64,000 nucleotides of DNA. Origin: Rhodobacteraceae bacterium bin131 (GTDB taxonomy: Bacteria > Pseudomonadota > Alphaproteobacteria > Rhodobacterales > Rhodobacteraceae). Shown here in pieces: positions 20,692 through 39,784 of the stretch (position 1 is the stretch's first letter; the number at the start of each line of letters is the position of its first letter). Under the pieces are notes generated by a model, which saw nothing but the letters and a program-made list of their open reading frames with translations, searched no databases and had not been told where the DNA came from. The DNA lies in contig MPNP01000001.1 of assembly GCA_002239085.1 (NCBI GenBank), positions 49,169 through 113,168 on the forward strand, read 5' to 3'. Made by a program: the position numbers and the translations under genes.

Positions 20692-22092
20692 TTAGTTGAT
20701 ATGTTTTCTCAATTCCTTCATTCGGTATAAACTCTCATCTTTCCCAAGTATAATAAGCAAATCAAAGACACTTGGAGAGTTTAATTTTCCAACCAAAGCT
20801 ATCCGAATAGGCTGAATCACCTTACCCAATCCCAAATTGAAGCGATTGCCTAATTCTCTTGTGAACTGTTCAAGGGAATCACGGGTCCAAAAAACATCTT
20901 CAATCGCGTCTAAATACGCATCAAAAACAGCAACGTTTATCTGCTTCATTGTGGCAATTGATTTTTGGTCGTATTCGCCTGGTTCGTACCACAAGAACCC
21001 TAATTCTTCCCACAATTCAACCAAATTTTTTGAACGGCCTTGGAGGAACGGTAATGCTTTTTGAACTTGGCTTTCAAGATTGTTATCAATACGAATTTGA
21101 TATTTTATTGAAACAAACTCCTTCAGTGATTGTAATAATGTAGAGGTATCTAAATTGGCTAAGTGGAGGCGTGATAAATGGTTGAGTATCTTGGGGTCAT
21201 AACGGGCCGATGACTTGCGTAAATCTTCAAGACGAAACCACTTTATTGCCTGGTCCATACAAAAGAATTCATCATCACCATGCGACCAACCTAACCGAGC
21301 AAGAAAATTACACGCGGCCTCAGGTATAATCCCGGCATTAAAAAACACCTCAACTCCCTCAGCTCCATCTCTTTTAGAGAATTTCTTACCCTGCTGATTA
21401 TGGATTAAGGGGACGTGAGCGAAGTTAGGGATTGACCAATTGAAAGCCTGATAAATCAGCTTTTGTTTGAAGGTGTTTGCAATATGGTCGTTGCCCCTGA
21501 TAATGTGGCTAATGTCCATGGCATGATCATCAACGACAACAGCAAAATTATAGGTCGGAGACCCATCAGATCGTAGAATTACAAAATCATCAAGTGTGTC
21601 ATTGTTGATTGAAACTTGTCCTAATACGATGTCATTGATCAATGATTTTCCAGAAAGAGGAGCTTTGACTCGAATGGTAAATGGTTTGTCTGGATAATCG
21701 GTGTCTGAGGCATCCCGCCAAGGGCTCACAAAAAAAGTAGCATTCCCTTTTTGCTTAGCTTCAGCTTGATAATCTGCAATCTCTTGTGGAGTAGCAAAGC
21801 ATTTATAAGCATGTCCCGTCTTAAGAAGATTAAGTGCCATTTCTTGATGGATTGGTTGTCTGGTGCGCTGGCTGATTGGTTCATCATCCCAATTTAAATT
21901 GAGCCATTTTAAACCATTTAAAATTCCTTCAGTGGCTTCGGGAGTTGATCTAGCTTGATCAGTATCTTCAATTCGTAATAGAAATTTTCCTCCATTGGCG
22001 CGAGCAAACAACCAATTAAATAAGGCAGTTCTTGCTCCACCGATGTGGAGATGTCCCGTGGGTGAGGGTGCAAATCTTGTGGTGACTGTCAT
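20692..22092 (-). CDS. gltX: Glutamate--tRNA ligase
   Basis: 466 aa. HIGH motif (PSPTGHLHIGGARTAL) and KMSKS-type motif (KKFSKRDG). Confidence 0.95.
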   Translation of the reverse strand: MTVTTRFAPSPTGHLHIGGARTALFNWLFARANGGKFLLRIEDTDQARSTPEATEGILNGLKWLNLNWDDEPISQRTRQPIHQEMALNLLKTGHAYKCFATPQEIADYQAEAKQKGNATFFVSPWRDASDTDYPDKPFTIRVKAPLSGKSLINDIVLGQVSINNDTLDDFVILRSDGSPTYNFAVVVDDHAMDISHIIRGNDHIANTFKQKLIYQAFNWSIPNFAHVPLIHNQQGKKFSKRDGAEGVEVFFNAGIIPEAACNFLARLGWSHGDDEFFCMDQAIKWFRLEDLRKSSARYDPKILNHLSRLHLANLDTSTLLQSLKEFVSIKYQIRIDNNLESQVQKALPFLQGRSKNLVELWEELGFLWYEPGEYDQKSIATMKQINVAVFDAYLDAIEDVFWTRDSLEQFTRELGNRFNLGLGKVIQPIRIALVGKLNSPSVFDLLIILGKDESLYRMKELRKHIN

Positions 22093-22144: not shown

Positions 22145-23935
22145 TTATTTTTTGACTTCTCCTAGTGACGCAACTTTTTCGGCGATGATTTTAGCTCTTT
22201 CGTTCAGAAACTTATCGTAAAGCACTTTTAATTCTCCTTTGCTATTCATTGTTTCGAAAGGCACAAGATGCTCTTCGATTCTTTTTTGAAGAATAGTAGT
22301 TTTAATGAGGAATTTTTTTTCAGAGTTTTGGATAAATATTTCAGGTAATAGATTTGACATTCCTTTATTCGTTCTTCCATTAAGAAAAACACCATTTAGG
22401 CCACTGTTGATAGCATCTATATCTATATTAGCTTCTTCTAATAGTTTTTTTGGGAATACATGATGAGTATCAAGGTTTCTGTTAGCTTCAAGATCTCTGA
22501 ACATGTTTTCGTTTATTGGGTCACCTGTTATCCAATCACTTGGATTATTTGACATTACTAAAGAAGCTACAGCCCTTCCTAATCTAGTTTTTTTACCAAT
22601 CCAAGGAGTATGTTTAAGTAAACTTTTGTGACTACAAAGCGGGTAATCGGTTTCATTTAAAGCAGGTATATTCTTACTACACCATGTGCCATCAATCTTT
22701 ATCATCTGAAATTCACGCTTTAGAGCCACAAAATCAAAAAAAAGCCTATCGTTAGCTTGTGCGTCATACCTATCAGAAAATATACATCGCCAATAATATG
22801 TACTAAGTAACTCTCTTGCTGAATTGATTTTTGAGGGGTTAGTAATTTCGTTGTAAATTTCATACAAGGCAGCAATCACGTGTAAAGGTGGCCAACTAGG
22901 TAAGATCCTATCTGTGAAGGCACCAAATGCGGAAGCTTTTTCCAAACTCCATGAAAGATGCATTAATAGTTTTTTGATTGTGTTGCTCTTATTCATTTCC
23001 TGTTGATACAACAAATCAAGTGCTTTTTTGTAATTTACTTCTTTTGGAGCTAAATCTGACTTCAGACAAGCGACTTTAAGCATCCATTCGCCGATATCGG
23101 GTATCCAATCTTCTGGATCATTTTTGAAATAATAACCAAAATTTTTACCTTCCTTACCGCATTCTTCATTGATTGAAGTACGTAAATTTTCACTATGCTG
23201 AGATTCAACTCGAGCGACCTCAATATCAAAGCGTTTGATTTTCACAGAGGAGGTATTTGTTTCAACAAAAATGTCAGTAGCCGTTGGACGGTCAGTAGAT
23301 GAAGGAAGAAAACATGCCCAGAGTTGTCTTTTGAAAAAATTCTCTTTAAAAAACGCATCTATTTTAATCTCAAGTAACCTGGCCTCTTGAGAATTTGATT
23401 TGAAAATCTCTTGACACCAATTGGTTAGAGGTGAAAATGCTTTGTCATCATGAACTTTCAGTAGAATGTCAAGTGGAACTAGGTTGGCATCGTAAGAATT
23501 TGATACATCACGATATTCTTTTTCTTTACGGGTTTCTTTTCCGTAGGCCTCAAGAAGAGAAAATTCTAACTCACTAGAAGATAAATCTTCAAATTTTACA
23601 AAAAGTCTGCTTTTTGCCTTTCCATGAATACATTGCAACAACGATGTCATTCGTTGTTGACCATCTAGAATAAATTCCGAAAAATCTCCTGTAGAATTTC
23701 TAAAGTCAAGATTGTAAAAATCCCGTGGTTCAAACTGTTTGTCCCTATCCTTTTCTAGGATTAGAAAGAAACCAACTGGCTTATCATTAATTATAGCTTG
23801 GATATAATTCTTGACTTTATCCATGGTCCAAACGAAACTTCTCTGAAAATCAGGTAGGATAACAGACCCGTCTTGGGAGAGCTTAAGCCAGTCTTCTAAA
23901 ACTCTGAAGTCATATTTTATTGATGAGCTCTTCAT
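22145..23935 (-). CDS. DUF262 (ParB-like NTPase) plus DUF1524 (His-Me finger nuclease) protein, GmrSD/SspE-type
   Basis: 596 aa. N-terminal DUF262 hallmarks LPDFQRSFVW and ILDGQQRMTSL. C-terminal DUF1524-like nuclease motif DTHHVFPKK...NGVFLNGRTNKGMSN. Divergent from the adjacent operon. Confidence 0.8.
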   Translation of the reverse strand: MKSSSIKYDFRVLEDWLKLSQDGSVILPDFQRSFVWTMDKVKNYIQAIINDKPVGFFLILEKDRDKQFEPRDFYNLDFRNSTGDFSEFILDGQQRMTSLLQCIHGKAKSRLFVKFEDLSSSELEFSLLEAYGKETRKEKEYRDVSNSYDANLVPLDILLKVHDDKAFSPLTNWCQEIFKSNSQEARLLEIKIDAFFKENFFKRQLWACFLPSSTDRPTATDIFVETNTSSVKIKRFDIEVARVESQHSENLRTSINEECGKEGKNFGYYFKNDPEDWIPDIGEWMLKVACLKSDLAPKEVNYKKALDLLYQQEMNKSNTIKKLLMHLSWSLEKASAFGAFTDRILPSWPPLHVIAALYEIYNEITNPSKINSARELLSTYYWRCIFSDRYDAQANDRLFFDFVALKREFQMIKIDGTWCSKNIPALNETDYPLCSHKSLLKHTPWIGKKTRLGRAVASLVMSNNPSDWITGDPINENMFRDLEANRNLDTHHVFPKKLLEEANIDIDAINSGLNGVFLNGRTNKGMSNLLPEIFIQNSEKKFLIKTTILQKRIEEHLVPFETMNSKGELKVLYDKFLNERAKIIAEKVASLGEVKK

Positions 23936-24036
23936 ATAATTTTTCTAAATTAATTTTTGAATTTTAATATGTTTTATTTACCTAATAGAATATATTGGTG
24001 AGTAATGTTCGGAGAATATGAAGAATTTTTCATTTT

Positions 24037-24045
24037 TGTTATAAT
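24037..24045 (+). promoter_or_regulatory. Extended -10 promoter element TGTTATAAT upstream of the island operon
   Basis: Exact TGnTATAAT read in the divergent intergenic region, about 120 nt upstream of the first possible start. No clear -35. In AT-rich DNA a chance match is possible. Confidence 0.3.
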
Positions 24046-24167
24046 TTGACCCTTGATTAGACTTGCCATAGGGAAGAGTACCCGATTGGATTTGTAGAAT
24101 TTGCTGACGAATTAGTACAATAGCATTTTTGTCTTGAGGAGTTTGCTCTGAGGGTCAATAAGACTGG

Positions 24168-25754
24168 TTGTCAAAACTCATTCAACCTTACATAGACAAG
24201 AAGGTGGAGAGAGCTACAAAGAACCTCTCAAACAGAACAATTGAAAAAGTTCAATCTCCAGTCAAAAAAACACTAATACTAATTTTAAACTGCACTTCAC
24301 AACCTAAAAAATTTACCAAAATTTGTCTTTCGATTATGAATATAACAACCACTAAGTGCTGTAAGCAAGACCATAAATTGAGTGAAACTTGTTGGTCAAA
24401 TGCTAATGCACCCCAAATTGCTGGTGTTCCGAAATTAGTAAATTCAAAGAAATATATTAGAAAGAAACCACTTCATGAGCCCCAAATTGAGTATGGTTTA
24501 AACTATAAAGATAAACATCATCCTGACCTACCACATATCGTGAAATTCTCTGGCGGAAGATCTAGTGGGATGTTACTACTAACCCTTCTGTGCAATCAAA
24601 TTTTAGATGCAAAAAGGGGCGATGTAGTTATATTTAACAATACTTCATGTGAACATCCATATACCTATGACTTTGTTAAGCGTTGTAAAAAGGTAACTGA
24701 GAACTTTGGGATTCCTTTTTTTATAGTTGAATTCATTACTTACGAAGACTCAAGGCGAGGTGAATGGGCGCGATTTCCTTCTTATCGGCTTACAAATGAA
24801 AATCCGATAAGTTCCGATAACCCCAACGGTTTTCATTGGAAAGGAGAAGTTTTTGAGGAGCTTATATCTTGGTCTGGATTTATTCCAAATCAATTCAGTC
24901 GAATTTGTACAAAAAGAATGAAGCTTGAGACTACAAGATATTTTCTCCAAGATTGGTTTACCAGTGAAGATGCAGTTCAGCAAGTCGGTCATTTTGATGC
25001 ACAGTCAAGAATAGATCACCGGGTCACTTATTTACGTCATTTACGCAATGGTGGTAGTGTCCCAGAGGAAATATTTTTTAAGAAAAAAAGGTTTGTATGG
25101 AGTAGGCCTCATTTTAGGCAAGAACAAAAATACCTTGATTTCTCAAGTGCTTGGATACCATTCGTACTACCAAAAAAGTCAATTCCAAGCAATCGCTCTC
25201 AATTGGTTTCCAAAGGTTTTGAATATGTTTCTTTTATTGGCCTAAGAGGTGATGAAAAAGTAAGAGTCAATCGGGTAAAAGAAAGAAATTCAAATCTAGA
25301 TGCATACGGCTTTGAAGGAGAACACATTTATCTCCCACTTGATAATATGAATATTTCCAAAGAGGATGTGAATGTTTTTTGGAGTAACCAAGAATGGGAT
25401 CTTAATTTACCCATGGGAGGTGGGCTTTCAAACTGTGTTTACTGTTTTTTAAAGGGTGCCAAAAATCTTCGTGGTATTCACGCCGAGATGGAAAGAATGA
25501 AACATAGAGGTGATATTCCCAATTACGGCTCAATTGAAAACACTCCATGTGACCTTGAATGGTGGAAACGGATTGAAAGGGATTATGGAAGAGATTTGTT
25601 AGCTGAAAATAGAAAGAAATCAAATAATGAAATTAATTTTCTTGGTTTCTTTGGGAATAAAACTGGATTTAATTATGAGCTGCTATCAAGTGCCAACGAT
25701 AAAGTAATGAATAAGTATATAGGCGAACTTTTACCGTGTGATTGCACAGAATAG
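24168..25754 (+). CDS. PAPS-reductase-like PP-loop ATP pyrophosphatase (DndC/SspD-like)
   Basis: 528-aa ORF. PP-loop IVKFSGGRSSGMLLL, later Cys motifs SNCVYCFLKG, and C-terminal LLPCDCTE. The N-terminal ~115 aa is Lys/Cys-rich with no recognisable domain. The start is uncertain (TTG 24168 or ATG 24336). Confidence 0.75.
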   Translation: MSKLIQPYIDKKVERATKNLSNRTIEKVQSPVKKTLILILNCTSQPKKFTKICLSIMNITTTKCCKQDHKLSETCWSNANAPQIAGVPKLVNSKKYIRKKPLHEPQIEYGLNYKDKHHPDLPHIVKFSGGRSSGMLLLTLLCNQILDAKRGDVVIFNNTSCEHPYTYDFVKRCKKVTENFGIPFFIVEFITYEDSRRGEWARFPSYRLTNENPISSDNPNGFHWKGEVFEELISWSGFIPNQFSRICTKRMKLETTRYFLQDWFTSEDAVQQVGHFDAQSRIDHRVTYLRHLRNGGSVPEEIFFKKKRFVWSRPHFRQEQKYLDFSSAWIPFVLPKKSIPSNRSQLVSKGFEYVSFIGLRGDEKVRVNRVKERNSNLDAYGFEGEHIYLPLDNMNISKEDVNVFWSNQEWDLNLPMGGGLSNCVYCFLKGAKNLRGIHAEMERMKHRGDIPNYGSIENTPCDLEWWKRIERDYGRDLLAENRKKSNNEINFLGFFGNKTGFNYELLSSANDKVMNKYIGELLPCDCTE

Positions 25755-25756
25755 AA

Positions 25757-26893
25757 ATGTCCGAATTACCAGTTTACCTTGATTACCAATCGACTACTCC
25801 GATTGACCCACGTGTGGCAGAAGTGATTTCAGAGTCCTATGAGAAGTTTTTTGGGAACCCTCATGGTCGACAACATTACTATAGTCGGATTGCGGCTGAG
25901 GCCATTGAAGATGCACGAGAAAAAATTGCATATCTTATTGGTGCATTCCCTAATCGTATTGTATTTACTTCAGGAGCGACCGAGTCATGCAACCTTGCTT
26001 TACGTGGGATTGTACAAAACTCTAATGGAAAGCGAAAGAGAATCATTTCAGTTGCAACTGAACATTCAGCCGTGTTAGAAAACTTGAATGCGATAGAAAG
26101 ATTGGAGTTTGAAGTTAAGTTTGTGAAAGTCGATAGAGATGGGATAATAGACCTAGAACATTTAAATAATTTAATAAATGAAAACACCCTAATCGTATCA
26201 GTTATGGCTGTGAATAATGAGATAGGAGTTGTTCAACCAATTAATAAAATCGCTGATATGTGCCATAGTAAAGGTGCTTTATTTCATACTGATGCAACTC
26301 AAGCCCCTGGTCGTATAATTATTGATGTTGAGGTATGGAATGCTGACCTATTAACAATATCTGCTCATAAACTTTATGGCCCTAAAGGTATCGGAATACT
26401 TTATGTTTCTGAAGACTCGCTATTGGCACCTATTTTTTATGGTGGTGGCCAAGAAAGGGGACTGAGGTCTGGTACATTGCCAACGCCATTAATTTGTGGT
26501 TTTGGGGAGGCAGCAGCGATAGTATCAGAGGAGGGTAGAAAAGACGCAAAACGAATGAACGAATTGAGTAAAAAGCTTTGGATTGGTTTAGAATCTTTGG
26601 CACCGGATATTGTTAAATTTGGATCATTAACACATAGGGCACCTGGAAGTCTTAATTTCGGATTTCCTGGAATTCCAGGTGACCGGCTTGTTGCAATGGT
26701 TGAAAATGAAATTGCTATCTCAACTGGCTCATCCTGTGCATCTGAAAGTAATTCTATTTCACACGTTTTGAGTGCATTAGGATTGCCTAGATCATCAATA
26801 TCAACTGCCATTAGAGTAAGCTTAGGAAGGTTCACAACTGAATCCGAAATCAATAAGGCACTATTAGCTTTCAAAACAATTTTAGCGAAGTAA
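25757..26893 (+). CDS. Class V aminotransferase-fold cysteine desulfurase (IscS/NifS/DndA/SspA-like)
   Basis: PLP lysine context SAHKLYGPKGIG, catalytic Cys loop STGSSCAS, N-terminal LDYQSTTPIDPRV. ATG 25757 is 3 nt after the preceding stop; the ORF is open from 25742. Confidence 0.85.
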   Translation: MSELPVYLDYQSTTPIDPRVAEVISESYEKFFGNPHGRQHYYSRIAAEAIEDAREKIAYLIGAFPNRIVFTSGATESCNLALRGIVQNSNGKRKRIISVATEHSAVLENLNAIERLEFEVKFVKVDRDGIIDLEHLNNLINENTLIVSVMAVNNEIGVVQPINKIADMCHSKGALFHTDATQAPGRIIIDVEVWNADLLTISAHKLYGPKGIGILYVSEDSLLAPIFYGGGQERGLRSGTLPTPLICGFGEAAAIVSEEGRKDAKRMNELSKKLWIGLESLAPDIVKFGSLTHRAPGSLNFGFPGIPGDRLVAMVENEIAISTGSSCASESNSISHVLSALGLPRSSISTAIRVSLGRFTTESEINKALLAFKTILAK

Positions 26894-26899
26894 TATTAC

Positions 26900-28855
26900 A
26901 TGCCCGACCCCAACCTAATTTTTTATGATACCCAAACAGAAACAGGATTTACCTCAGCAGGGGTTTCTGCTTTTTCTGAACTAAATCCTGCGGCTGTAGT
27001 CAGAGAACTGATACAAAATTCACTTGATGCCGCTTTGATTGAAGCCAAAGAAAATTGTGCAAAGGTGCAATTCAGACTATTTGAATCTCAAACTAAAGAC
27101 ATTCCCGGAATTAAAAGCTATAAAGCTGCGTTTAAGTCAGCTAAACATCATCAAATGGTTGATGGAAGACTGCCAATTGCTGCTGGTCCTATTGCCGAAC
27201 GGGTTGAAAATGCTCTGCGGAAAAAGAATCAAAGAATACTTGCGGTCTCTGACAACGGTTGTGGATTGGACAAAGCAAAAATGCTTGCCCTTTTAGGTGA
27301 TGGTATCAGTGCAAAAAGTGCTAATTCGGCTGGGACATATGGGAATGGCCACTCTGTTCCAATCCCGGCTTCTGACCTGAGATATTTATTATATGGAGGA
27401 TTAACTGAGAATGGAAAAACTATTGCTTCAGGAAAAGCTTTGCTAGCTACACATATAAAAAATAATAAATTACTTTCTGACCGGGGCTTATTTGTAGTTG
27501 ATGGAGTAATTGATACTCAATTGAGAGGTCTGAGTTATTCGTTTCCAAGTGAGGACTTAATTCCTGAACTGATTAGAAATGAAATTGATTTAATAAAAAA
27601 TACATTCGGTCATGGAACCGTAATTTTGGTACCATCCTTTAACCAATTTGGGGAAGATAATGAATCTTTGTGGAAAATAGTGTCAAAAGCCACGGTATGC
27701 AGTTTTTTTGAAGCTATTCATTCAGAAAAACTCATTATTGAAGTCAAGGATGATATTATCGGTAGTTCTAATTGCTTAAATAAACAAAACCTCAAGGAGA
27801 TACTTGAAGAATATAAGAATGAAAAAAGATCCACCGGAGCTTATATTAGTGGGTCAAAAGCAAATTTGGCGTATGAGACATTAGTTGAAAGCAAAATAAA
27901 TAAATTAGAAACTACATTGGGTAATGTGGATATCCTTTTAAATGACAAAAAAGTTGAAAGAACTAGTATAGGACTATGTCGAAATGGAATGTGGATAACT
28001 GACGTTATTCCCACTTTTAGGGGGAAATTTAGTGATTTATATCCTTTTCGAGCATTATTACTATTACATTCAGAAGAAAGAAATTCTCTCTATAAAATAA
28101 TTCAAGAAATTGAAACTCCACTTCACAATAAACTTGAATTAAAATTGATTTCAAATGATGAAAAAAAGAAAAAGCTTAAAAATGCATTAGATGAAATTTC
28201 TGACTGGTTTCGAAATAATGTTACCAAGTTGGATTCAAATTCTTACAGTCCTGATAGTGTTTTATGCTTAAGGTTTGTTGATGGTACACACTCTGGTGGG
28301 GGAATCGACAATGATTTTATGGGTCCACCTAGTGTTGTTGAACCTTTTAGTCCGGGTTCGGGTACTGATGAAGCTGAAGGATCTAGTGAAAAAGGTGAAC
28401 AGCCGAGCGGCGGTAAAGGAAATGGACAAGGAGATAGGAGTCAGAAAAAAAGACGCAAAATCAAAAACCCAAATAATTTTCGTATCGTAGCAAGGTCAAA
28501 TGGTTCTGAAAAACTAAAAATTTTACTTGATTGCAATGAGGATTGCGAAAACGCTGAGCTAAGTGTTTTTATTGATGAGAACATTGATGAAACGTGTGAT
28601 AATTTTAGCAATAATGAACTTGTTAAACTGTTTGATGCTACAATTGATAGCAAAAAAATATCCCAAAAGAAGCTCGACAAAACTTCTAGAATTAAACTAG
28701 GAAAATTGAAGGCAAATACTCAAACAGTAATTGAAACTAAATTTCGTTTGCCAAATTTTGTACTTTGTAAAACCCTGAATTTTACTCCATCATTTAAAAT
28801 TGAAATTGAACAAATCGTTGAAGAACAAACTTCTGAAGGTAAAGCCAAGCGATAA
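26900..28855 (+). CDS. GHKL/Bergerat-fold (HSP90/MORC-like) ATPase with a long uncharacterised C-terminal region
   Basis: 651 aa. N-box VRELIQNSLDAA, G1 box VSDNGCGLD, G2-like AGTYGNGHS. Has a Gly/Ser/Glu-rich linker and a basic patch (GGKGNGQGDRSQKKRRKIKNPNN), then a Cys/acidic C-terminal domain. Confidence 0.7.
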   Translation: MPDPNLIFYDTQTETGFTSAGVSAFSELNPAAVVRELIQNSLDAALIEAKENCAKVQFRLFESQTKDIPGIKSYKAAFKSAKHHQMVDGRLPIAAGPIAERVENALRKKNQRILAVSDNGCGLDKAKMLALLGDGISAKSANSAGTYGNGHSVPIPASDLRYLLYGGLTENGKTIASGKALLATHIKNNKLLSDRGLFVVDGVIDTQLRGLSYSFPSEDLIPELIRNEIDLIKNTFGHGTVILVPSFNQFGEDNESLWKIVSKATVCSFFEAIHSEKLIIEVKDDIIGSSNCLNKQNLKEILEEYKNEKRSTGAYISGSKANLAYETLVESKINKLETTLGNVDILLNDKKVERTSIGLCRNGMWITDVIPTFRGKFSDLYPFRALLLLHSEERNSLYKIIQEIETPLHNKLELKLISNDEKKKKLKNALDEISDWFRNNVTKLDSNSYSPDSVLCLRFVDGTHSGGGIDNDFMGPPSVVEPFSPGSGTDEAEGSSEKGEQPSGGKGNGQGDRSQKKRRKIKNPNNFRIVARSNGSEKLKILLDCNEDCENAELSVFIDENIDETCDNFSNNELVKLFDATIDSKKISQKKLDKTSRIKLGKLKANTQTVIETKFRLPNFVLCKTLNFTPSFKIEIEQIVEEQTSEGKAKR

Positions 28856-28857
28856 AT

Positions 28858-29703
28858 ATGACCGATGAAATCTTTACAGTCAATAATGAGGCAAATTCAA
28901 ATACTTCATCAGTAAGAATGACTGATATCCCTGTACTAGAAGTCGGCAATCAATCATACCCTAGGGGAATTTATACAATCAAATTTAAGGAAAGAGCCGA
29001 TAATTCATCGTTTGAAATTACTCATTGTATTGAAAATGCTCCTCTAATCAATCATCTGACTGAACTCGGCTGTACTAAATTTCTTTGTACAGTTTCTTCT
29101 CCAATTTCATCCTACAGAAGAAGCCATATCTCATTAGAAGCAACTCAGATAATAAGTTGGAATAATGATGACCTCGGAGAAGCTCCTTTACTGAAACCAA
29201 TGATTGTTGTTTCAAAGCATTATAATAAAGTTCTAGATTATGAAAAGGACGGCGTACATAAATTCTGGCATGGTGAAGAAGTAAAATTTATTCCGGGAAT
29301 GAGACTGGCTATGAGTCAAGTTATCAAGTTGGGGTCAGCAATTCAGAAACTACTAATTTACATTGAAGATAAAGAACTTGGTCCAGGTGAATTTAAGGTT
29401 AATGAAGATACTAATGAAAATTTTTATTTTCTAGTTAAACTTGCTCCTGACCTTCATCAATTCTTAAAAATTAATCAGCTAAGCCCTCTCCAAAATAGTA
29501 TCAATACTCACATTGTAAGTTCATGTTTTAGTTATTTAAAACGTCACTATGCAAATGAAGAATACAAAAATTATAGAAATTTGATTGGTTTATTTAAGGA
29601 ACTTGAATCAAAGGGATTGCTTACTTGGACTGATGATGAATTTTTACCTGAATTGGCCGCTACCAAGCTTTATCCTCACATTGTAAATGAGACTGATAAA
29701 TGA
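28858..29703 (+). CDS. Hypothetical protein (island operon gene 4)
   Basis: 281-aa ORF starting 3 nt after the GHKL ATPase stop and overlapping the next gene by ATGA. No motif recognisable by eye. Confidence 0.6.
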   Translation: MTDEIFTVNNEANSNTSSVRMTDIPVLEVGNQSYPRGIYTIKFKERADNSSFEITHCIENAPLINHLTELGCTKFLCTVSSPISSYRRSHISLEATQIISWNNDDLGEAPLLKPMIVVSKHYNKVLDYEKDGVHKFWHGEEVKFIPGMRLAMSQVIKLGSAIQKLLIYIEDKELGPGEFKVNEDTNENFYFLVKLAPDLHQFLKINQLSPLQNSINTHIVSSCFSYLKRHYANEEYKNYRNLIGLFKELESKGLLTWTDDEFLPELAATKLYPHIVNETDK

Positions 29704-30578
29704 GCTCGATTTCTTTTATTGAGTTTGATGCAGATAAATTTTCAAATTTGCAAAGAAATCTTTTAAAACCCAAAAATAAAGGTTCAGAACAGCAGTGTAA
29801 ATTTTTAGAAAGGGTCATAGATTCATCTAATTTTTGTACAGAATTAGAGAAGATGTTGCCACAAGGAATCGAAGAAAATAAACTACCGGATTTAGTTACG
29901 AAAATGACTGAAGCTGAATTCAAAGATCCCCCGTGGGATACAGAAAAAAGAATTTACTCAATTTGGAAGAATATTCCTCCTAGAATTGCATGTAGGACTA
30001 CTTTTTGGGCTTATATTACTTATCAGCAAATTAAAAGTGATAGAATCAAATCATCATATTTGGTAGGGGGCAGGGGTAGTACCGGCAAGAATTGTATTCA
30101 TGAAGCATTAAACTCAAATGATAGGAAAGAGATAGATAAGTGTATTAGAGAAGTATTTCGCAGGCTTGGAGGACTTAAGCTTGCCCGTGGTAACAGGAGT
30201 ATCTATGTTGATTGTATTCTTGCTCGAGCATGGTGGAGAGAGAGGTTGGTTGAAGAAGTAGCAAAGGGGGATTGTGAATTAGAAGTTTATGTCCGTGATG
30301 CTGTTCGTATCAGTCAAAGCTATTGGGAAAAATTAGTGACATTTATTGTTTCACGAAACTCAGTGTTTGGTTCAACTGAAATTAGAAGTAAGTTTATTAA
30401 AATTCTTGGAGAGGAGTTGGCAACTGACCCAAATTCTCCCATGCAAAAAATTGAAAACTTAGTATTAGCCTCAAAAACTTTGAGTTCTGTTCAAGCGTCA
30501 CTTGAGCTCAGTATTTTAGACCCAAAAGAGATTGAAGAGAAAATGTTGGATATTATTAATTCAATATCAAACCAATAA
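29700..30578 (+). CDS. Hypothetical protein (island operon gene 5)
   Basis: 292-aa ORF, translationally coupled (ATGA overlap). Appears largely helical with Trp/Arg-rich segments (ARAWWRERLVEEV, SQSYWEKLVTFIVSRNSVFG). The size is compatible with the roughly 290-aa DUF4007 (SspB) class, but this is not verifiable here. Confidence 0.6.
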   Translation: MSSISFIEFDADKFSNLQRNLLKPKNKGSEQQCKFLERVIDSSNFCTELEKMLPQGIEENKLPDLVTKMTEAEFKDPPWDTEKRIYSIWKNIPPRIACRTTFWAYITYQQIKSDRIKSSYLVGGRGSTGKNCIHEALNSNDRKEIDKCIREVFRRLGGLKLARGNRSIYVDCILARAWWRERLVEEVAKGDCELEVYVRDAVRISQSYWEKLVTFIVSRNSVFGSTEIRSKFIKILGEELATDPNSPMQKIENLVLASKTLSSVQASLELSILDPKEIEEKMLDIINSISNQ

Positions 30579-30603: not shown

Positions 30604-31809
30604 CTACTGTAGATAGGATTGGTTGAGACTGATGAATTTTACCATGTCACCAGCCTTCCTAGGTCTATCGTTTGGTTCCCTTATCATTAACGCATTTGAT
30701 CTGTAGAGTACATTCAATAAAGAACTGTCTTGATGTTCATGAGCTTTGATGTTTGGTCTTTCAGTTGAATAATCAACGATAGCGCGTAGATAGTGTTCGC
30801 GTGGTCCATTGGCGTTTAATGGAGCGGACAGTTGGGCAATTTTTCTGGGTAAACCAATTGGATTTAATCGCTGCATAGCCTGAATTACGGGAAGAATAAA
30901 GACATAACCACAAACGATAGCTGAAACGGGATTACCAGGCAAACCAACTAATAGACTGCGAGGATTGCGACCAGCAAATAGTGGTTTGCCCGGACGCATT
31001 GCAATTTTATAAAATGAAATTTCAAAGCCCATTTTGTGTGCCGTATCTTGAACGAGATCAAAGTCACCAACCGAAGCTCCTCCAATTGTAAGAATAAGGT
31101 CGGAACTCTGTGCCATATTAAGAATGTTGGATATCGAGGATTCATTATCGCGGGCTATGGGGAGAAGTTTCACTTCACATCCAGCAACTTCAAGGATTGA
31201 CTTCAAGCCATATACATTTGAAGCAACAATCTGATTATCAGCTGGAATCTGTCCGGGCATAACCAACTCATCCCCAGTAGGAATAATTGAAACAATCGGT
31301 TTTTTGTAAACTAATAGTCGAGCTTGGTTCATCGCGGCCAGAAGCGAAATCAATGCGGGCGTAAGAACATGAGGCGCTGAAACTTTATACCCTTTCTTAA
31401 AATCGCTTCCGGCAAGTCGGATAAATAAATTTTCTTCTAAATGCTCATTGAGAATGATGATAGACCCGCAATCGTTCACATCTTCCACAATGACAACCCG
31501 GTCGGCTCCTTTGGGTATTGGAGCACCTGTATAAATTCGAACGGCCTCATTTCGACCCAAACAATAATCAGGAATGTCTGCTCCAGCAGGAACGGTACCA
31601 ATAATTTTTAATTGTTTTCCAGCTTCTGAATCATTTTGGCTAACAGCAAATCCGTCCATTGAAGAACTATCAAATGGTGGTTGGTCACGAGGTGATAACG
31701 TATCTTGAGCAAGTACTCGACCTGCCGCTTCGCTCAGATCAATCCACTCAGTTTCAAGGGGTGAGGTGATGGCTAAAAGCCGCTTCAATGCCTCACTGAC
31801 CGATATCAT
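30604..31809 (-). CDS. moeA: Molybdopterin molybdotransferase
   Basis: 401 aa. MoeA-like (SPRDQPPFDSSSMDGFAV; GGASVGDFD; GLPGNPVSA). Confidence 0.9.
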   Translation of the reverse strand: MISVSEALKRLLAITSPLETEWIDLSEAAGRVLAQDTLSPRDQPPFDSSSMDGFAVSQNDSEAGKQLKIIGTVPAGADIPDYCLGRNEAVRIYTGAPIPKGADRVVIVEDVNDCGSIIILNEHLEENLFIRLAGSDFKKGYKVSAPHVLTPALISLLAAMNQARLLVYKKPIVSIIPTGDELVMPGQIPADNQIVASNVYGLKSILEVAGCEVKLLPIARDNESSISNILNMAQSSDLILTIGGASVGDFDLVQDTAHKMGFEISFYKIAMRPGKPLFAGRNPRSLLVGLPGNPVSAIVCGYVFILPVIQAMQRLNPIGLPRKIAQLSAPLNANGPREHYLRAIVDYSTERPNIKAHEHQDSSLLNVLYRSNALMIREPNDRPRKAGDMVKFISLNQSYLQ

Positions 31810-39696: not shown

Positions 39697-39784
39697 TGGC
39701 GGAGAGACAGGGATTCGAACCCTGGGTACCCTGAGGTACAACGGTTTTCGAGACCGCCCCGTTCGACCACTCCGGCACCTCTCC
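39697..39784 (-). tRNA. tRNA-Ser (anticodon CGA), CCA encoded
   Basis: Reverse complement reads GGAGAGGTGCCGGAGTGGTCGAACGGGGCGGTCTCGAAAACCGTTGTACCTCAGGGTACCCAGGGTTCGAATCCCTGTCTCTCCGCCA. It has a 7-bp acceptor stem, anticodon loop CTCGAAA, a long variable arm (GTACC-TCA-GGGTAC) and a T-arm CAGGG-TTCGAAT-CCCTG. Confidence 0.9.

Follow-up and report, generated by a model that had tools for sequence, protein, structure and literature searches.

A candidate phosphorothioation-like modification and restriction island with a GHKL ATPase trio in Rhodobacteraceae bacterium bin131

In this study we analysed a 64,000-nucleotide (nt) stretch of DNA from Rhodobacteraceae bacterium bin131 (contig MPNP01000001.1, positions 49,169 to 113,168 of the forward strand; referred to as the window) and a six-gene island at positions 22145-30578 of it. 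Five plus-strand genes encode a PP-loop ATP pyrophosphatase, a cysteine desulfurase, a GHKL ATPase, a protein of 281 amino acids (aa) and a 292-aa DUF6339-like protein, and a GmrSD-type nuclease is encoded divergently. We refer to the first two proteins as the writer and to the following three as the trio. Gene content and linkage recur in other genomes, the modules also occur separately, and the proteins have remote relationships to known families. The likeliest explanation of the locus is a phosphorothioation-like modification and restriction system of a new type. In its specific form, to which we assign a probability of about 0.4, the island would be a defence system of the phosphorothioation kind with three separable modules, in which the trio acts as reader and effector. 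Judged by its protein sequences, the locus is not an Ssp, Dnd or BREX type 4 system.

The five-gene arrangement is not due to chance, since the same order recurs in 72 of 82 loci from other genomes. A word-indexed search for the PP-loop family yielded more than 1,200 clusters at 90% identity, and 176 representatives among 1.84 billion reached E ≤ 1e-30. A scan of one genome per species returned 273 relatives, the best 80 of which were inspected and all derive from metagenome-assembled genomes; the 82 loci were used for the gene-order counts. The complete core was present in 73 of them, with less than 500 nt between genes in 65; of the nine loci with an incomplete core, four run into the end of their contig. 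The PP-loop enzymes share about 51% identity with the window protein, the trio proteins 36-40%. The carriers represent at least nine phyla and include Alpha- and Gammaproteobacteria, Acidobacteriota, Gemmatimonadota, Chloroflexota, Spirochaetota, Latescibacterota, Binatia, Rhodothermales and others. This spread suggests horizontal transfer within a habitat of sponge and coral symbionts, with the habitat judged from record names. Many carriers bear names or bin labels typical of such symbionts (Candidatus Poriferihabitaceae, Binatia, Latescibacterota, SB06xx, COS4, STY1, Plut), and the family name Poriferihabitaceae was found only in a sponge genome note (PMC12859430).

The PP-loop protein of about 472 aa (24336-25754, plus strand) was recognised by its motifs and by profile hidden Markov models (HMMs) as a divergent member of the SspD/BrxP/DndC kind and predicted sulfur-inserting enzyme; the kind is also known as the 3'-phosphoadenosine 5'-phosphosulfate (PAPS) reductase kind. 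By sequence it is a remote relative of SspD and BrxP. Its open reading frame (ORF) opens at a TTG at 24168, and in the homologue alignment the first ~56-80 codons precede the conserved part; a start near 24336 is therefore likelier, because this N-terminal stretch of the long ORF is not conserved in the homologues. The public annotation of an identical protein gives 516 aa, with a start even earlier than the homologues support. The protein contains an SGGRSSG PP-loop and the motif RICTKRMKLE. In the family alignment C173, C247, C423 and C426 are invariant and C524 and C526 nearly so; the conserved cysteines include a CxxC and a C-terminal CDC (CxC) motif. In PADLOC the protein matched SspD over a 39-residue stretch (3.8e-8) and BrxP on the PP-loop stretch only (6.8e-7), and the DndC models scored 0.0049 and 0.019. 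Moreover, the SspD and BrxP models matched all 22 tested family members (best 9.7e-10 and 5e-7), and the DndC model matched seven of them. Profile comparison with hhalign gave E 1.1e-4 and a probability of 57% against genuine SspD, with the SGGRSS loop and RxCTxxLK aligned, and E 0.17 against genuine DndC, where the PP-loop and RWCTxRLK motifs align.

A first-pass annotation of the window, made from the sequence alone, had described this protein as a PAPS-reductase-type PP-loop ATPase. The motif and the SspD and BrxP matches agree with this description, whereas the Pfam PAPS_reduct model stayed below its threshold (E 0.011). The same annotation had named clustering with CysH or tRNA-thiolation enzymes as a check on the defence reading. 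The NCBIfam scan speaks against it: no model of the CysH, APS-reductase or tRNA thiolase (TtcA, MnmA, ThiI) type was matched, and the two weak PRK13795 matches (5e-5 and 0.002) lie far under the cut-offs. The family profile found no relative among PDB sequences, and a search of viral contigs returned no relatives of the protein. Matches on plasmids comprised only distant prophage-type PAPS reductases, which we set aside as uninformative.

The second gene (25757-26893, plus strand; ORF opening at 25742) encodes a class-V cysteine desulfurase of 378 aa of the IscS/NifS/DndA/SspA type, assigned by HMMs as the putative sulfur donor. The earlier assignment to this class holds, as the protein fits SspA and DndA equally well in PADLOC (9.4e-136 and 1.6e-133) and matches Pfam Aminotran_5 with 2e-78. 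In NCBIfam it scored 403 bits for IscS and 370 bits for DndA, and every equivalog cut-off was missed. The gene is present in 80 of the 82 related loci.

The trio begins with the GHKL (Bergerat-fold) ATPase of 651 aa (26900-28855, plus strand), which corresponds to PDC-M33A of PADLOC (1.5e-49 over residues 12-448). As had been proposed from its motifs, this protein is a GHKL ATPase: motifs I-III are invariant in 26 homologues (E36, N40, D43; D118-N-G-x-G-L; G145, G148, G150, H151). The Pfam models HATPase_c and HATPase_c_3 gave weak matches below threshold, and the PDB profile search found Hsp90 (0.013) followed by MORC3 and MutL N-termini (E 0.3-0.5), all of them weak. Besides, the protein has a conserved middle part (CRNGMWI, AEGPLH). 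Behind it, positions 28250-28855 encode a low-complexity linker rich in G, S, E, K and R, which contains a basic patch (KKRRKIK), and the C-terminal domain, whose acidic motif (V/I)DENxDxTCD is almost invariant and might bind metal.

The next two proteins, of 281 and 292 aa, had been reported to lack any recognisable motif. For the 281-aa protein (28858-29703, plus strand) this still holds with regard to its own matches, as no Pfam, NCBIfam or PADLOC model was hit and PDC-M33B gave nothing at E ≤ 1. We assign it to the PDC-M33B family by its homologues (35-51% identical), 34 of 37 of which match that model (best 3.2e-13). Its beta-rich core, which carries an SPxSSYR motif, spans about residues 35-158 and is followed by a helical C-terminus. 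Its AlphaFold model is poor (predicted local distance difference test, pLDDT, 58), and Foldseek returned only generic beta-sandwiches at E ~0.01, from which we draw no conclusion. The 292-aa protein (29700-30578, plus strand), on the other hand, is all-alpha and rich in Arg and Trp, and it matches, weakly, DUF6339 (Pfam 1.3e-5, 25.4 bits with a cut-off of 23.2) and PDC-M33C (PADLOC 9.6e-5), the latter also matched by 38 of 47 homologues. Its model is confident (pLDDT 91.6; predicted template modelling score 0.89) and has no structural neighbour in the PDB (best E 0.95) or in BFVD (best E 2.4), so the modelled protein may represent a new fold. A conserved Arg/Trp-rich stretch, R150-R180 with an RGNR loop, suggests nucleic-acid binding from its sequence. 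Structure prediction followed by Foldseek, as had been advised for both proteins, thus gave no informative structural match for either.

The divergent gene (22145-23935, minus strand) encodes a GmrSD-family enzyme of 596 aa with an N-terminal DUF262 NTPase/sensor domain and a C-terminal His-Me (HNH-like) motif, as judged from HMMs and motifs. It matched Pfam GmrSD_N (1.8e-19) and PADLOC HEC-05 (7e-14). The QR (F30-Q31-R32), DGQQR (91-95) and FxxxN (F223..N227) motifs that define DUF262 (PMC12137116) are invariant or nearly so in 21 homologues, and HHVFP at 491-495 (H491/H492), N514 and N523 are conserved in the C-terminus. A DUF262 plus DUF1524 nuclease had been proposed initially. The DUF262 part stands, but the Pfam DUF1524 model did not match at E ≤ 10, which leaves the H..N..N motif and a weak alignment of the C-terminus to the DHIYPK...N...N His-Me region of BrxU. 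Among solved structures BrxU (7p9k) is the best relative of the family profile (1.1e-10), and SspE (6jiv) scores 0.66; the PADLOC SspE model gave 0.006 on just 13 residues. The enzyme shares the QR, DGQQR, FxxxN and H..N..N motifs with GmrSD/BrxU type IV enzymes, whereas its linkage to a sulfur writer resembles SspE rather than GmrSD or BrxU. The nuclease gene lies next to the core in the window and in 23 of the 82 loci. This linkage, asked for in the form of a neighbourhood survey, is therefore conserved. Sensing of the mark in the manner of SspE and a BrxU-like add-on are both candidate roles.

The genes adjoining the core vary. In related loci the GmrSD nuclease is encoded downstream of it in the 23 cases mentioned, a sigma-like helix-turn-helix (HTH) protein in 14 and PbeA in seven (plus L084), with PbeA scores of 1e-148 to 1e-151, and DndB with a 170-aa partner follows in five (Pfam DndB 6.3e-27). 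The breakpoints between the modules are constant throughout. In L084 (9908-21239) a Pbe-like module with genes for the sigma-like HTH protein, PbeA (5.6e-151), PbeC (3.7e-45) and a 171-aa protein has been inserted into the operon behind the PP-loop gene and ahead of the GHKL gene, and the desulfurase gene is absent. In L069 the trio genes come ahead of the writer genes, and in L076, L079 and L082 the desulfurase gene is separated from the GHKL gene by the nuclease gene. A module of HTH and PbeA/PbeB/PbeC/PbeD also follows genuine dndBCDE and sspABCD operons on plasmids. The antiviral activity of the Pbe module has been described as phosphorothioation-dependent, and many copies pair with methylases (PMC6459918). 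A protein of about 500 aa without family assignment is encoded downstream of the core in 11 loci (e.g. L024, 16188-17705; L077, 16262-17812), in several of them between the core and the HTH and PbeA genes; it has one weak Methyltransf_23 match.

The trio itself also occurs alone. Copies without sulfur genes were found on Lactococcus, Ligilactobacillus and Deinococcus plasmids (L087, 6923-10548; L086, 6941-12445; L085, 7433-10475). The Lactococcus lactis plasmids encode proteins of 655, 286 and 273 aa, the last being a DUF6339 protein, beside AbiGI/GII and an AlwI-type restriction gene. On the Ligilactobacillus plasmids the trio follows hsdS and an N6-methylase gene, at the place where hsdR would be expected, and on the Deinococcus plasmid it lies near dcm-vsr. 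The Ligilactobacillus trio is split, being interrupted by a group II intron (ltrA). With hhalign the GHKL ATPase was related to its Lactococcus counterpart with a probability of 99.3% (5e-20) and the 281-aa family with 95.4% (1.7e-8); the comparison of the 292-aa family with the Lactococcus DUF6339 protein was not significant.

Conversely, the writer occurs without the trio. Two loci, L053 and L064, contain the PP-loop and desulfurase genes only; their other neighbours were compared with the trio profiles as possible replacements and are unrelated. Moreover, three members of the PP-loop family are natural fusions of a complete C5 cytosine DNA methylase with a PP-loop domain: P0307 (L100, 8001-10472), P0299 (L102, 8001-9833) and P0302 (L101, 83-2641). 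P0307 matches PF00145 with 3.9e-70, and the catalytic motifs are kept in both halves. The fusion genes share a mobile-element backbone of Rep3, Bro-N/KilA-N, DUF2857, topoisomerase, fusion, DUF3577, secretin and T2SSE, and neither a desulfurase nor the trio was found near them. An orphan device for self-marking and anti-restriction is a plausible interpretation of these fusions. They support DNA as substrate of the PP-loop enzyme, and they suggest that the enzyme can act without the trio when it is otherwise brought to DNA.

The sulfur chemistry that we propose for the island is a prediction from protein families. The desulfurase would take sulfur from cysteine as a persulfide, and the Cys-rich PP-loop enzyme would use ATP to activate a position of the DNA into which the sulfur is inserted. 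The most likely target would be the backbone phosphate, which would be converted to a phosphorothioate, because SspD, BrxP and DndC are the only named relatives of the enzyme and the neighbouring genes belong to accessory modules of phosphorothioation. The trio may form an ATP-driven DNA-handling complex that distinguishes marked self DNA from foreign DNA without the mark, which it would exclude or restrict. Its role would then parallel that of TdpAB, DndFGH or PbeABCD beside their writers. In the Tdp system, the PP-loop writer TdpC is accompanied by a separate restriction complex, TdpAB. We weakly prefer this reader or effector role, which we infer, for the trio because it occurs alone in plasmid defence islands and the writer also occurs without it. 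The divergent DUF262/His-Me enzyme of the GmrSD type would be an exchangeable nuclease arm, whose place elsewhere is taken by PbeA/PbeC, by DndB or by nothing.

Several points weigh against this interpretation. The writer and the trio are translationally coupled and occur together in about 90% of the loci, which a trio belonging to the writer would explain equally well. Stand-alone plasmid copies of a trio that restricts unmarked DNA would be expected to harm their own hosts, unless their mode of action is different. No nuclease or DNA-binding domain was recognised in the trio by Pfam, PDB profile search or Foldseek. The similarity to SspD, BrxP and DndC is remote, with partial HMM matches, an hhalign probability of 57%, a Pfam score below threshold and no relative in the PDB. 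Besides, the best solved relative of the nuclease is BrxU and not SspE. Finally, only 42% of PbeAC pairs lie near dndCD and PbeABCD also pairs with methyltransferases (PMC6459918), so the association with Pbe genes is not specific for sulfur.

The coupling of the five genes leads to the strongest alternative, in which the chemistry is the same and all five plus-strand proteins form the modification machine. Here the GHKL ATPase would stand in place of the P-loop ATPase (DndD, SspC or BrxC) and the 281-aa and DUF6339 proteins in place of the partners that bind or nick DNA (DndE, SspB/DUF4007), and the GmrSD enzyme, or elsewhere the Pbe modules, would be the sole restriction arm. In three of the four established writers a PP-loop enzyme, an ATPase and a part that binds DNA are all required (PMC12914056, PMC12839542). 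In the window the five genes are coupled in translation, and 72 of the 82 loci keep their order; the variable modules GmrSD, PbeA/PbeC and DndB are those that accompany dnd and ssp writers, and no nuclease signature was found in the trio. Furthermore, a further effector is missing from about half of the loci, a situation often seen with dnd clusters (PMC10853773). Nevertheless, the trio exists alone, without sulfur genes, in plasmid defence islands and is a PADLOC candidate by itself, and the PP-loop enzyme exists without the trio in the methylase fusions on mobile elements and, with the desulfurase only, in L053 and L064. A likeness of the trio to DndD, DndE, SspB or SspC was found neither in sequence nor in fold. 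We regard a five-protein writer as possible but somewhat unlikely. It was the first-pass annotation that had combined such a modification module with a nuclease effector, and the computational tests that it named all favoured its reading. The non-canonical character of the system and its link to the nuclease stand, and links to Pbe and DndB can be added; the assignment of all five genes to modification is uncertain, since the trio is also found without the PP-loop enzyme and vice versa.

Another alternative concerns the nature of the mark, which might be a thiolated base such as 2-thio-deoxycytidine, read by the rest of the island and made by chemistry as in the Fe-S PP-loop tRNA thiolases. 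In favour of this, the PP-loop protein is only very distantly related to DndC and SspD, exceeds SspD in length by about 200 residues and carries a CxxC as well as a C-terminal CxC motif. Its fusion partner is a C5 methyltransferase, an enzyme that flips cytosine. GmrSD-type enzymes typically sense modified bases (PMC12137116). However, the detectable named relatives are only SspD, BrxP and DndC, no tRNA thiolase of NCBIfam was matched, and the neighbours PbeA/PbeC and DndB are familiar from systems of backbone phosphorothioation. We know of no report of a thiolated DNA base that serves bacteria as an epigenetic mark, which also counts against this alternative. Altogether a base mark appears improbable, and the same low expectation applies to its extended form, a mark of the thiolated-cytosine type with the trio as a new ATP-driven reader. 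If it were true, the island and its approximately 270 relatives would represent a fully new epigenetic defence chemistry that spreads horizontally through sponge-symbiont communities and is counteracted by the mobile elements with methylase::PP-loop fusions. Very unlikely, in our view, is an operon unrelated to DNA or defence, i.e. an RNA-thiolation, cofactor or sulfur-metabolism cassette beside a restriction gene: a desulfurase and a PP-loop ATPase likewise form the centre of pathways for tRNA thiolation and for cofactors and the PP-loop protein has no above-threshold family, but its domain is fused to a DNA methyltransferase, the MutL/MORC-like GHKL gene is constantly linked, genes for GmrSD, PbeA/PbeC, DndB and type IV restriction enzymes recur nearby, the distribution is patchy across phyla in a low-GC island, and the trio is a defence-island candidate.

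For the phosphorothioation-like system favoured here, the relation to known systems can be described in some detail. Dnd, Ssp, Tdp and BREX type 4 are the four established phosphorothioation systems listed in the 2026 literature (PMC12914056), which also states that the ATPase partner of the Dnd, Ssp and BREX type 4 writers is a P-loop NTPase needed for modification. A GHKL partner is not mentioned there or in two comparative-genomics surveys (PMC10853773, PMC12839542). Canonical membership in Ssp, Dnd or BREX type 4 was ruled out by PADLOC, Pfam and NCBIfam scans and by hhalign comparison with SspB, SspD and DndC from plasmid operons (sspA-sspB-sspC-sspD-pbeABCD and dndBCDE-pbe). None of these scans detected an equivalent of SspB/DUF4007, SspC, DndB, DndD, DndE, BrxC, PglZ or BrxL among the six proteins, in line with the initial statement that DndB, DndD and DndE are missing. 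Of the six proteins only the generic cysteine desulfurase scores as a full-length Ssp or Dnd member. Nor do the 281-aa and 292-aa families resemble genuine SspB in hhalign (E 0.19 and 0.69), which agrees with the earlier expectation of at least one gene without an Ssp counterpart.

With Ssp the island shares a dedicated cysteine desulfurase, a PP-loop enzyme that is nearest to SspD among the named families and a DUF262 plus His-Me protein beside the operon, and Pbe modules can follow either operon type. In contrast to Ssp, it lacks SspB/DUF4007 and SspC (DUF6079, a BrxC-like P-loop ATPase) and has the GHKL ATPase and two unrelated proteins instead. Its PP-loop protein of about 470 aa differs from SspD with 277 aa, to which the similarity is E 1e-4 to 1e-9, the gene order is different, and the nuclease has little similarity to SspE (0.006 with the model, 0.66 with the structure sequence). 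Similar relations were found for Dnd, with which the island has a DndA-like desulfurase and the aligned PP-loop and RxCTxxLK motifs of DndC in common; DndB and HTH plus PbeA plus PbeC adjoin the core in related loci as they do beside dnd operons. However, DndD (an ABC/SMC ATPase), DndE and DndFGH are absent from the island, and the similarity to DndC alone is not significant (0.005; 0.17). BREX type 4 likewise combines a PP-loop writer with an ATPase partner, and the BrxP model matches all tested family members, but the island has no BrxC, PglZ or BrxL and the BrxP match of the window protein is confined to the PP-loop stretch. PDC-M33, a three-gene PADLOC candidate, corresponds to the trio with its models A, B and C in the same order, although the matches to B and C are weak. 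Unlike PDC-M33 alone, the trio here and in about 72 other genomes is in one operon with the PP-loop and desulfurase genes, which are missing from the plasmid copies.

The island is thus partly catalogued as PDC-M33, and our literature search found no description of the trio together with the sulfur genes. It likewise found none of PDC-M33, of DUF6339 or of a GHKL ATPase in phosphorothioation, with subscription-only papers outside the search. The island also uses protein families that appear to be absent from the known systems, as far as sequence comparison with Dnd, Ssp and BREX type 4 can tell. If our interpretation is correct, the island would represent a fifth phosphorothioation system beside Dnd, Ssp, Tdp and BREX type 4, with a MutL/MORC-like GHKL ATPase and two families of proteins of unknown fold at its centre. 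This would offer a testable function for PDC-M33 and DUF6339, and Pbe-type modules would be common to at least three different writers. Mobile elements with an orphan methylase::PP-loop writer would add a plausible means of anti-restriction. The system is widespread, mobile and experimentally tractable. Surveys with Dnd, Ssp or Brx queries and surveys of cultured genomes would miss it because it occurs almost only in uncultured symbionts of multiple phyla.

In its genomic context the island stands out by its composition. The ORF check of the window confirmed six intact ORFs between a gene resembling that of glutamyl-tRNA synthetase (GluRS; 20692-22092) and moeA (30604-31809; Pfam MoeA_N, MoCF_biosynth, MoeA_C), the first gene of the downstream flank moeA-moaC-trpC. 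The coordinates, the number of genes and the flanks gltX and moeA given in the first-pass annotation were therefore correct, with the GluRS-like flank assigned from motifs only, and the motifs FSGGRSSG, SAHK, SSCAS, ELIQNSLDA, DNGCGLD, DGQQR and HHVFPK were all found in the translations. The AT-rich character holds as well: a GC fraction of 0.352 is the minimum over all 8.4-kb windows in the 64 kb (mean 0.400, standard deviation 0.016). So does the tight coupling of the five plus-strand genes, whose first three gaps, with ATG starts, measure 2, 6 and 2 nt and whose last junction is a 4-nt overlap (ATGA). The divergent intergenic region (23936-24335, 30.5% GC) presumably contains, from its position, the promoters of the nuclease gene and of the five-gene operon. 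A scan for promoter consensus sequences gave 36 sites with 30.3 expected, which is not above chance, and a scan for terminator-like sites gave 8 with 5.0 expected, none of which we interpret. Direct repeats bracketing the island were not found, and neither a tRNA gene nor an integrase gene lies at its borders; the sole tRNA found is tRNA-Ser at 39697-39784.

Two related loci have neighbours of a further kind. In one gammaproteobacterial metagenome-assembled genome (L002/L008, 60-9000 and 16617-16910) the system is located in a region resembling an integrative and conjugative element (DUF3577, AcaB, DUF2857) beside AbiE genes, with a GmrSD gene shortened to 97 aa. In a metagenome-assembled genome of the Poriferihabitaceae (L005, 16651-19782) a type IV methyl-directed restriction enzyme is encoded directly downstream (PADLOC 3.7e-250).

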